Source: a virus (taxonomy: Duplodnaviria > Heunggongvirae > Uroviricota > Caudoviricetes). From it: a stretch of 7,942 nucleotides of DNA. Shown here in pieces: positions 2,857-7,942 of the stretch. Each line of letters begins with the position of its first letter. Positions within the stretch are counted from its first letter, which is position 1. The DNA lies in IMG/VR virus record IMGVR_UViG_2529292910_000006; one strand, 5' to 3'. The translations under genes and the position numbers were made by a program. The notes under the pieces were generated by a model. It saw nothing but the letters and a program-made list of their open reading frames with translations, made no database searches and had not been told where the DNA came from.

Positions 2857-3143
2857 CACCACACTTATCTGCCCTGACTCTCTTTTGCGGGCTTTTTATT
2901 ACAGGAAAGACACCGGACAGTGAAATGTTAAATGCCTCACAATTCAGGCAGTTGACTGTTGCCTGACATGCTGAGCGTTTGTTAAAAAAATCCTGCATGA
3001 TGAATCCCCCTGAGCGGCGGGGCATAATGACAGATGTTTGGTTGCGTATTGTATAGGCAAGTTGCGGATTCTGTCTGGTCATTGCAGAATTCACCGGGAG
3101 GCACCCGGCATCATGCTGTATACAGAGATTAGGCATATATCCA

Positions 3144-3168
3144 GGCTCCTCATCGCAGGAGCCTTTTT
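3144..3168 (+). terminator. Rho-independent terminator (+ strand)
   Basis: Stem GGCTCCT (3144-3150) / AGGAGCC (3157-3163) with loop CATCGC, followed by TTTTT. Confidence 0.55.
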
Positions 3169-3174
3169 ACATGC

Positions 3175-3199
3175 AAAAAAAGCCCGAGTGGGTTCGGGC
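3175..3199 (-). terminator. Rho-independent terminator (- strand), forming a back-to-back pair with the + strand terminator
   Basis: On the minus strand: GCCCGA, loop ACCCAC, TCGGGC, followed by T7 (seen as A7 at 3175-3181 then GCCCGAGTGGGTTCGGGC on the + strand). Confidence 0.45.
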
Positions 3200-3259
3200 A
3201 ACAGCATGAGATACTTGCATTGTCATTTTTATCGTGTGGATTTTAACCAGGGTTTATAA

Positions 3260-5952: not shown

Positions 5953-6027
5953 CCATGCGCAGGGGCTGTCGGTGTGAGCTGATGCCCCTCTTGTTGTTGT
6001 GAGCTTCCGGATTGCGGGAGACGGGGT

Positions 6028-6243
6028 ATGTACCAGATGGAAAAAATCACAACAGGTGTGTCATACACCACGTCAGCGGTGGGAACGGGCTACTGGTTCC
6101 TGCAGTTGCTGGACAGGGTTTCCCCGTCTCAGTGGGCGGCAATAGGCGTGCTGGGGAGTCTGCTGTTTGGTCTGTTGACGTACCTGACGAACCTGTATTT
6201 CAAAATCAGAGAGGACCGTCGTAAGGCGGCACGGGGAGAGTAG
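6028..6243 (+). CDS. S: Class II holin (phage 21 S-type pinholin), 71 aa, with dual-start motif
   Basis: GGGAG at 6016-6020 then ATG 6028 and a second in-frame ATG at 6037 (MYQMEK…). Two transmembrane segments and the charged C-terminus [13 protein letters not shown]. The sequence closely matches my recollection of S21 (…[25 protein letters not shown]…[22 protein letters not shown]). Confidence 0.9.
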
Positions 6244-6246
6244 GTG

Positions 6247-6327
6247 ATGAACCATGAAGAAATGAATCAGCGCTTCAGTCGTCTGGAAAATGAAATTGCT
6301 GAACTGAATAAAAACTGTCGGCGCTGA
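6247..6327 (+). CDS. Very small ORF (26 aa) coupled to the downstream gene by a TGATG overlap; coding status uncertain
   Basis: ATG at 6247, 3 nt after the holin stop (MNHEEMNQRFSRLENEIAELNKNCRR*). Its TGA at 6325-6327 shares an A with ATG 6327 of the next ORF. Confidence 0.3.
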   Translation: MNHEEMNQRFSRLENEIAELNKNCRR

Positions 6328-6803
6328 TGCCTTCTGAAGATGAAAAAAAACGCCGCGATGAGCAGTTTGCTGCGTTTGACGATTATTGTCGGAAAGTGAT
6401 GAGCAGAAATCTCGCAGAGTGTTTCAGTATTCATAATGATAATTTCAGTGAGCTGGAATGGGAGTGTAACCGGCCATCCTTTGTTGTATCCGGTGATGCT
6501 GGGAAAATAACCATCTCAGAAAATGGGAAAGTAACACCTCCATCGCACCAGCACAGTGAGGAGCTCATTGAATTTGCCATTGATTACCTGAAGAACAATA
6601 AAAAGCAGGGGCTGATGAAGCGCGTTGGCCGTTGCATGGGATATCTTCAGGTAGCCGCTGAGATTGAAGCGCTGGCCAGTGGTGCTGATAAGGATGCAAT
6701 TGTGCGGGAGGCTCTTCTTCGTGATTTTAATACTCCACCCTTTAAAAAAGTGCCGGCTTACTGGCTTCATCCGGGGCTGACTTATCTTAAAGTGCGTATT
6801 TAG
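6327..6803 (+). CDS. Hypothetical protein (158 aa) located between holin and endolysin
   Basis: Uninterrupted ORF with non-repetitive composition (MPSEDEKKRRDEQFAAFDDYCRKVMSRNL…). An A8 tract at 6343-6350 sits in codons 6-8. No family recognised. Confidence 0.55.
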   Translation: MPSEDEKKRRDEQFAAFDDYCRKVMSRNLAECFSIHNDNFSELEWECNRPSFVVSGDAGKITISENGKVTPPSHQHSEELIEFAIDYLKNNKKQGLMKRVGRCMGYLQVAAEIEALASGADKDAIVREALLRDFNTPPFKKVPAYWLHPGLTYLKVRI

Positions 6804-6839
6804 TGGGCCAGGGACAGCGGCTGAATATTTAATATATCC

Positions 6840-6980
6840 ATGAACACCAAAATCAAATACGGCCTGTCGGCTGCCGTTCTGGCGCTGATTGCCGCTGGTG
6901 CGCCTGCGCCTGACATTCTCGACCAGTTTCTGGATGAAAAGGAAGGTAACCACACCACGGCATACCGTGATGGCGCGGGT
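6840..6980 (+). pseudogene. R: SAR endolysin (lysozyme R) 5' fragment, truncated after about 47 codons
   Basis: MNTKIKYGLSAAVLALIAAGAPAPDILDQFLDEKEGNHTTAYRDGAG matches the N-terminal signal-anchor-release region of Stx-phage/phage-21-type endolysins as recalled (…YGLSAAVLALIAAGA…DQFLDEKEGNHTTAYRDGAG). After about 6980 the frame becomes unrelated and stops at 7014-7016. Confidence 0.75.
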
Positions 6981-6985
6981 ACACC

Positions 6986-7942
6986 ATGCAGGTTGAGCCG
7001 GGGCGTTATCGTGTGACCCTGTGCGTGGAAGGCCGTCAGCCGGCATGCGCTGGCGAGATTGACGTCATGGCAGACGACGAGCCGGGCACACTGAATGCGT
7101 TTTTGCTGCGTGAGCAGGACAGCACTTATTACCCTGAGTCGCTGAAAAAACTGGAAGACGCGGCGGATGCGGCTGTCAGCAGGGCAGAGGAAGCGGCGAG
7201 GAAAGCGGAAACGGCGGTTGGGCCACAGGGACCGAAAGGCGACACCGGAGCAACGGGGCCGCAGGGACAGAAGGGGGACAAGGGGGATACAGGCCCACAG
7301 GGGCCAAAGGGGGATAAAGGAGACAAGGGCGATAAGGGGGATAAGGGAAAAGAGATTATTGCAGTACGAAATGCAGCCTGCAACGAATACGGCGGGATAA
7401 ACTGTGAGGTGCAGTTTGAAGATGCGGTCAATGAAAAAGGAGAGCAGGTATGGCTGCCGTATACCGCAACGGAAACGGATAATACAGAACACGGAAAAGC
7501 CTTGTGGTCGGGGCTGACAGCAGGAACATACGGAAGTGTGAGTGCCTTTGTTGCCACGGAAGCAATACTGGAAGCGGCAAAGGCGGCGAAAAGGGAAGAG
7601 ATTAATATCTGGCGTGATGTGCAGGAGAATATGGAATACGTGATGGAATTCAACGGAAGGAACTGGGATTACGGCAAGAAGACGTTGTCCAGGATAAGCA
7701 CGACACGACTGATGGCAGAGAACAACCGTCTTCCGGAAGGGTTTGCCTGGACGGACGGGGATAATAATGTGGTGCCGGTAACGGCGGCGGAGATAATTGC
7801 GCTGGCAGATGCGACAGAGCAGGCGATGTTTGCGAAAGGTGTGGAGATTAATACACGTCAGCTTCAGATGAAAGCAGAGGTTGAGGCGCTGACAGAGCTG
7901 AAGGCGATCCGCAGTTATGTTGTCGGATGGCCTGCAAGCTAG
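6986..7942 (+). CDS. stf: Side tail fibre protein, 5'-truncated remnant (318 aa from the first ATG) with collagen-like Gly-X-Y repeats
   Basis: EPGRYRVTLCVEGRQPACAGEIDVMADDEPGTLNAFL aligns with lambda Stf residues around 55-95 as recalled (EYGQYSVILQVDGFPPSHAGTITVYEDSQPGTLNDFL), so the homology starts mid-protein. Fourteen Gly-X-Y triplets follow. The frame is open back to 6971 and runs to TAG at 7940-7942, with no ribosome-binding site of its own. Confidence 0.7.
   Translation: MQVEPGRYRVTLCVEGRQPACAGEIDVMADDEPGTLNAFLLREQDSTYYPESLKKLEDAADAAVSRAEEAARKAETAVGPQGPKGDTGATGPQGQKGDKGDTGPQGPKGDKGDKGDKGDKGKEIIAVRNAACNEYGGINCEVQFEDAVNEKGEQVWLPYTATETDNTEHGKALWSGLTAGTYGSVSAFVATEAILEAAKAAKREEINIWRDVQENMEYVMEFNGRNWDYGKKTLSRISTTRLMAENNRLPEGFAWTDGDNNVVPVTAAEIIALADATEQAMFAKGVEINTRQLQMKAEVEALTELKAIRSYVVGWPAS
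7220..7354 (+). repeat. Collagen-like triplet repeat (Gly-X-Y, 14-15 units, including four GDK in tandem) inside the tail fibre gene
   Basis: GPQGPKGDTGATGPQGQKGDKGDTGPQGPKGDKGDKGDKGDKGKE, with a 9-bp periodicity of GGnGAnAAG-type units visible in the DNA. Confidence 0.9.

Follow-up and report, generated by a model that had tools for sequence, protein, structure and literature searches.

Introduction

Many lysis cassettes of the S21-holin/R21-endolysin type, in E. coli prophages and in Stx phages, carry a gene in the gap between holin and endolysin, and in its intact form this gene is an optional member of such cassettes in lambdoid and Stx prophages of E. coli. A 185-aa protein is encoded at this locus in E. 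coli lambdoid prophages (WP_001015158.1 and WP_062891728.1; phrog_1085), starting 3 nt past the stop codon of the S21-type holin gene and ending about 36 nt before the R21-type lysozyme gene, the same location as that of the copy described here. Longer proteins of 268-329 aa, named the YdfR family (for example gp05 of Stx2-converting phage 86 and BCI50300.1 of Stx2_95), occupy the same slot between S and R and have an N-terminal DUF1327 domain (PF07041), absent from the 185-aa form, which precedes a module of the 185-aa type. The other half of these long fused proteins corresponds to YdfR of the E. coli K-12 Qin prophage (103 aa, DUF1327), whose gene, between essQ and rrrQ, is in an equivalent position. 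Residues 1-72 of K-12 YdfR have been reported to bind RNase E's catalytic domain, and possibly RNA (PMC13232886). Our literature searches turned up no publication dealing with a gene that lies between S and R in phages of the Stx or lambdoid kind.

Here we analyze a 7,942-nt stretch of DNA (IMG/VR record IMGVR_UViG_2529292910_000006; the window, to which all coordinates refer unless stated otherwise) that forms the late part of a lambdoid prophage of E. coli, with the gene order rusA, Q-type antiterminator, AraC-type gene, three tRNAs, SASA/NanS-p-type esterase, DUF1378, DUF826 and holin. A first-pass annotation of the sequence had singled out the coding DNA in its holin-endolysin gap and read it either as two coupled ORFs inserted into the lysis cassette, encoding a lysis regulator or a defence/exclusion factor, or as a frameshifted single gene of about 185 aa.

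Results

The holin gene at 6028-6243 (+ strand; 71 aa; TAG stop at 6241-6243) is of class II (phage 21 S-type), as its product matched Pfam PF04971, 'Bacteriophage P21 holin S', with an E value of 9e-33 and 112.5 bits against a gathering cut-off of 26, and the identical holin gene of relatives is labelled 'class II holin family protein' by PGAP. A GGAG-like Shine-Dalgarno sequence lies upstream of two potential start codons, a GTG at 6244 and an ATG at 6247, the latter three bases past the holin stop. The first ORF, of 26 aa from the ATG or 27 aa from the GTG, ends with a TGA at 6325-6327 and contains a run of five A residues (A5, 6310-6314, + strand) located 29 nt 5' of a run of eight (A8, 6343-6350, + strand). 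The second ORF begins with an ATG at 6327-6329, sharing one base with the preceding stop (TGATG, 6325-6329, + strand), and extends over 158 codons to a TAG at 6801-6803, with the A8 run in its codons 6-8 (GAA AAA AAA, Glu-Lys-Lys). The first-pass annotation had the two ORFs, the 3-nt spacing, the TGATG and the position of A8 all correct, but it had overlooked the A5 run and the truncation of the downstream endolysin. A minus-strand ORF of 176 aa (6516-7046) runs antisense to the 3' end of this region, the intergenic gap and the endolysin stump described below; we take it to be spurious, being opposite conserved plus-strand genes.

We compared positions 6000-7100 with 5,426 complete E. coli genomes by megablast and found the entire holin-to-endolysin stretch in 239 of them. 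In O157:H7 EC4115 the same slot holds an uninterrupted 558-nt gene for a 185-aa 'hypothetical protein' (WP_001015158.1, found on at least 999 contigs), and in ST866 it holds an intact 185-aa gene (WP_062891728.1). Both strains carry AATAAAAAACTG, with six A residues (A6; AAT AAA AAA CTG in EC4115) encoding Lys22-Lys23, where the window has A5, and both share the A8 of the second tract with the window (alignment A1 for EC4115). A6 was likewise present in 59 of 63 IMG/VR contigs. An uninterrupted orthologue at the same position was found in 46 IMG/VR contigs (ORFs of 185-222 aa), of which 38 have, from the ATG, 185 aa and eight have 213, 217 or 222 aa. With one A added to the run at 6310-6314, the window regains an ORF of 185 aa, which is 1 nt different from the ST866 gene and differs from the EC4115 gene at 10 synonymous and 7 non-synonymous codons. 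The 26-aa ORF comprises residues 1-22 of the intact protein plus four out-of-frame codons, and the 158-aa ORF comprises residues 28-185. In the bovine strain OkiPb01678, which is 99.7% identical to the window, the slot is occupied by a 559-nt pseudogene that PGAP labels 'frameshifted' and that has A6 in the first tract and A9 in the second (alignment A1). We consider it highly probable that 6247-6803 (+ strand) is one 185-codon late prophage gene that has lost one A from an A6 tract (now A5) and has become a pseudogene. Since EC4115 and ST866 have an uninterrupted gene and a single A repairs the window, the single-gene option of the first-pass annotation was the right one.

We weighed two other readings of these data. 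The two ORFs overlap tightly, and their DNA has a GC content of 0.43-0.48, slightly below that of the holin and tail-fibre DNA, features that would suit the insertion of two separate genes into the cassette, one for a small peptide and one for a lysis regulator or defence/exclusion factor of 158 aa. However, related prophages at 96-99.7% identity have a single ORF in this slot, the 26-aa ORF is the N-terminus of the 185-aa protein with four out-of-frame codons, PADLOC returned no match to any defence family, and neither a promoter-like site nor a convincing terminator-like one lies next to the gene; the last two results also count against the idea of a defence or exclusion factor as such. Judged by the intact orthologues, the insertion of two genuine genes is already refuted, and we give it virtually no chance. 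The other reading is that the strain truly has A6 and an intact 185-aa gene, the homopolymer having been under-called in a draft contig. The window matches contig AIFZ01000018.1 of E. coli DEC6E (GCA_000249675.2) with 0 mismatches over 7,616 nt, and the database entry for the 158-aa product is named 'hypothetical protein ECDEC6E_1329' (WP_001423428.1). In favour of an error, only one base of a homopolymer is affected; Q on this contig also shows a homopolymer deletion (A6 versus A7), which is absent from the closest relatives (contigs L004 and L018); homopolymer differences are scattered through other assemblies; and A5 occurs in 0 of the 5,426 complete E. coli genomes. Weighing against an error, the identical A5 allele was found in three more assemblies, which come from other projects or genomes. 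GCA_907175995.1 is 99.98% identical to the window and gap-free over 4.4 kb; IMG 2529292909 has the same endolysin/tail-fibre joint as the window and an additional A8 to A7 change in the second tract; and IMG 2609460344 has A5 in a different downstream context, with an intact 177-aa endolysin. Moreover, consensus errors are uncommon at runs of 5-6 nt. With A5 in four assemblies, an inherited mutation is much more likely than an artefact, so that the allele is probably real and a sequencing or assembly error very unlikely. These four assemblies, one of them with an intact endolysin downstream, also suggest that the frameshift is older than the endolysin deletion.

IMG 2609460344 was represented by three contigs (L017, L018 and L019) with an identical 4,470-nt 3' part and different upstream parts, which we counted as one observation. 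The common part, probably an assembly-graph repeat, contains the A5 pseudogene, the intact endolysin and the tail-fibre C-terminus.

We next consider what the frameshifted gene could produce. Translation from the ATG at 6247 shifts frame after codon 22 and terminates at the TGA at 6325-6327, yielding a 26-aa peptide. The 158 codons are open only as the remainder of the original frame, with Met28 as its first in-frame ATG, overlapping the TGA by chance. In the intact gene the junction reads GCG CTG ATG CCT (A-L-M-P), and the -1 frame merely meets an out-of-frame TGA that shares one base with the internal Met28 codon, which argues against the proposal that TGATG is an evolved translational coupling. 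Because inspection of the sequence found no Shine-Dalgarno sequence before the ATG at 6327, a 158-aa product could arise only by termination-reinitiation of low efficiency; some reinitiation at TGATG could nonetheless give a truncated 158-aa protein. Such a protein would be without half of the N-terminal helix and, with it, the family-invariant residues L20, N21, K22 and K23 (alignment A2) and S25, a loss which suggests that the frameshifted gene is most likely non-functional. The pseudogene would probably not even be transcribed as a late gene from its own element, because Q is frameshifted and a deletion has removed the DNA that ran from codon 48 of the endolysin gene into the middle of the tail-fibre gene.

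The A8 tract had been proposed as the site where slippage would switch the 158-aa protein on or off. In the window, A8 is of wild-type length and the base was lost from the neighbouring A6 tract, and as a stop codon lies between the two tracts, slippage at A8 would be unable to rescue this copy. The tract is slip-prone in relatives, as had been supposed: A9 is present in OkiPb01678, OkiPb01712 and, independently, RM13322, which has O157-type holin and lysozyme alleles, and A7 is present in IMG/VR contigs L065 and L020. Matching fragments among database proteins read ...EDEKNAAMS (A7) or ...EDEKKTPR* (A9) in several sequence backgrounds (P0142, P0146, P0150 and P0156), and such A8-shift fragments are frequent enough to have a PHROG of their own, phrog_15975. 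About 10 of 59 independent, complete copies in the IMG/VR sample were disrupted. Other lesions in this sample, including an 82-nt deletion in four contigs and a G deletion at codon 120 that accounts for 122-aa and 62-aa PHROG fragments, were as common as tract shifts.

Variation of this kind raises the question of whether the A6 and A8 tracts are functional switches, that is, contingency (phase-variation) or programmed-frameshift sites, with TGATG coupling a deliberate 158-aa isoform. Relatives that are nearly identical do differ in both tracts, four assemblies having A5, two different backgrounds (the Oki strains and the O157-type RM13322) having A9, and L065 and L020 having A7; the slippery heptamer A AAA AAA is present within GAA AAA AAA; and TGATG is a classic reinitiation junction. 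Off alleles are rare, however. Among the 247 complete genomes with the region, exact matches numbered 0 for A5, 3 for A9 and 0 for A7, and up to 94 for the exact intact probe (95-97-nt allele probes, for which bins of '>=99%' may include partial alignments, so only full-length 100% matches and zero counts are used here). The tracts are short for contingency loci, and A8 is not conserved in the family, being replaced in 17 of the 63 IMG/VR contigs, with intact ORFs, by GCAAACAAA (13) or GCAAAAAAA (4). The remaining inactivating lesions point to plain decay, the 158-aa form would lack invariant residues, and the element also has a broken Q and a broken endolysin. We also considered a programmed -1 ribosomal frameshift of the dnaX kind and rejected it, as the fold of the RNA after A8 (6351-6420) has no unusual stability (z = -0.31), the -1 frame reaches a stop after only 4 codons (KKTPR*, seen also in P0146) and a stop separates the tracts. 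A functional switch is thus most improbable. Instead, the disruption of this gene is, as far as the comparison of alleles tells, ordinary decay concentrated at homopolymers, with A8 as a genuine mutational hot spot that does not look like a regulated switch.

By profile comparison the intact protein is a member of phrog_1085, a PHROG family without assigned function. The intact orthologue matched with an E value of 2.9e-111 (residues 1-185 to profile positions 117-296) and the 158-aa ORF of the window with 9.8e-104. No real match was obtained for the 158-aa ORF in Pfam or for the intact 185-aa orthologue in NCBIfam and PADLOC; all that came up in these searches was coiled-coil noise below threshold (DegQ, for example). 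Precomputed Pfam domains are absent from the 185-aa homologues, and a PDB sequence search returned coiled-coil noise alone (occludin, E 0.003). A profile search of 1.84 billion proteins found only 43 relatives, counted as representatives at 50% identity, and all named ones are from Escherichia, Shigella or Salmonella; a scan of genome contigs confirmed three loci. Salmonella homologues are about 30% identical, and C-terminal motifs are conserved out to them. Together with the phrog_1085 match and the codon differences from EC4115, this conservation supports a real protein family.

The family is mosaic, with forms of 185, 208-222 and 161 aa in addition to the 268-329-aa 'YdfR family' forms. The C-terminal ~185 residues of the long proteins are 81-91% identical to the intact protein over about 98% of its length (287- and 296-aa forms). 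By these comparisons, the 185-aa protein does not belong to DUF1327 (PF07041); it has only the C-terminal extension of the long YdfR-family proteins in common with them, and BLASTP found no similarity between the intact 185-aa orthologue and YdfR proteins of 103 or 116 aa. We considered transferring the YdfR-RNase E interaction to the 185-aa protein and rejected this, there being no common domain and no detectable sequence similarity. The 296-aa proteins with DUF1327 and module also occur as separate products of about 116 aa (DUF1327) and 187 aa (module; P0015, P0034 and P0182), one of which, P0015, with 185 member sequences, starts at an internal Met of the long form; the family thus exists in both fused and split states.

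A first AlphaFold model of the intact protein, built from a shallow alignment, was poor (pLDDT 58.9), and a Foldseek search of the PDB with it came back empty. Adding homologues at the Salmonella level gave a usable model (pLDDT 78.9), which predicts that residues 3-59 form a helical hairpin, connected by a disordered linker to a sheet of three strands (80-97) and four helices; the conserved motifs GRCMGxLQVAAEIEA and DNPPFK..P..W..PG..YL fall on these four C-terminal helices. A membrane segment in the intact protein was excluded by hydropathy. The intact gene encodes a soluble protein, which the model divides into a helical hairpin at the N-terminus, a small beta-sheet and a C-terminal domain made of helices.

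The remainder of the window shows the state of the element in which the pseudogene lies. The Q-type antiterminator gene (486-1306, + strand) is split by an A7 to A6 deletion at 851-856 into two overlapping ORFs, both matching Pfam Antiterm. The gene is an intact 273-aa one in OkiPb01678, the tract is A7 in the copies of OkiPb01678, L004 and L018, and adding one A to the window restores 273 aa. As the change is not common to the closest assemblies, it could be strain-specific or an assembly error. The R21-like (SAR-type) endolysin is reduced to its N-terminal 47 codons (6840-6981, + strand), which match the start of the ST866 lysozyme at 100%; all 239 full-length megablast matches from complete genomes stop at query position 982. 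A 2-nt 'TA' microhomology at 6980-6981 links the stump to a tail-fibre gene, the endolysin match ending at 6981 and the tail-fibre match starting at 6980, and the same joint is found in IMGVR_UViG_2529292909_000011 (L020). The tail-fibre remnant (6986-7942, + strand) is entered at about residue 51 of the N-terminal domain (Pfam phage_tail_N from profile position 51) and contains collagen-like repeats (Pfam Collagen) and DUF4376; by BLAST it lacks about 696 nt present in ST866. Chromosomal genes (YkgJ-family, potB, potA and peptidase M20 family) follow directly after it. A deletion from endolysin to tail fibre followed by chromosomal genes implies that the spanin, terminase, head and tail genes are all gone, and the prophage is, on this gene content, a decayed remnant with defunct lysis genes.

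Several further features were observed in and around this element. The ~696-nt tail-fibre breakpoint lies at 7336-7343, with an 8-nt overlap in collagen-like GDKGD repeats, and the ST866 tail-fibre region is itself annotated as three separate CDSs. The rusA gene is frameshifted in OkiPb01678 (L010, 615-988) and has G6 in L004 where the window has G5; L004 also has an IS element inside Q. A gene for a 237-aa AraC-type HTH protein at 1865-2578 (Pfam HTH_18 in the identical locus L003), which may be a cargo regulator, lies between Q and three tRNA genes (2607-2856) with the anticodons CAT, Arg-TCG and Arg-TCT, the first being assigned to Met by ARAGORN and to Ile by PGAP in a relative. Such a tRNA trio is usual downstream of Q in Stx-like phages. 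In the interval from the tRNA cluster to the esterase gene, which is the place of the stx genes in Stx phages, Rfam gave matches to the sRNA STnc100 (2966-3174, + strand, 176.7 bits) and, directly adjoining it on the other strand, to the anti-GcvB sRNA AgvB (3175-3234; 56.6 bits, the gathering score being 56).

Discussion

By comparison with its relatives, the feature between holin and endolysin in the window is an ordinary homopolymer-frameshift pseudogene of an already catalogued hypothetical prophage gene. For annotation, this means that the 26-aa and 158-aa ORFs should be merged into one frameshifted pseudogene in a defective prophage, and should not be described as a coupled pair, a lysis regulator or a defence insertion. 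More broadly, the gap gene of S21-type cassettes emerges as a widespread, mosaic and still uncharacterised family, inactivated in about one of every six copies, with two short A runs as frequent sites, a frequency which suggests that the gene is dispensable in lysogens.

The lack of a promoter or terminator of its own and a start 3 nt past the holin stop mark it as part of the late operon, unlike a classical moron. The gene is missing from many S21-type cassettes and is often broken, which points to its being dispensable for lysis itself. The intact protein has the look of neither a structural lysis protein nor a defence factor. As one possible role we tentatively suggest a cytoplasmic accessory factor that serves the late or lysis programme and is dispensable. 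For the 185-aa module there is neither a Pfam family nor a fold relative that can be detected; it is always located between a pinholin-type holin and a SAR-type endolysin, and in some phages it is fused to DUF1327, the domain that binds RNase E. The bolder idea that it is an undescribed cytoplasmic regulator of lysis timing or late-transcript stability, with two poly-A tracts recurrently switchable in lysogens and the window as one 'off' state, strikes us as unlikely.

Among known systems, homopolymer contingency loci and dnaX-type A AAA AAG frameshifting resemble this locus in having A-runs in the 5' part of a coding region and length variants between strains. They differ from it in that the tracts of the window's family are short and unconserved, its off alleles are rare and there is no stimulatory structure. 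A closer likeness is to the genes for WP_001015158.1 and WP_062891728.1, which are 96-99.8% identical to the window at the DNA level and encode the same protein after the one-A repair; these have A6, whereas the window copy has A5 and hence 26 plus 158 codons. Similar in their fate are ACZ5Q8_RS17465 of OkiPb01678 and HCR07_RS04930 of RM13322, copies of the same gene that are flagged by PGAP and that were also inactivated by a 1-nt homopolymer change near the 5' end, in their case by a gain in the A8 tract (A9, 38-aa product) and in the window by a loss from the A6 tract.
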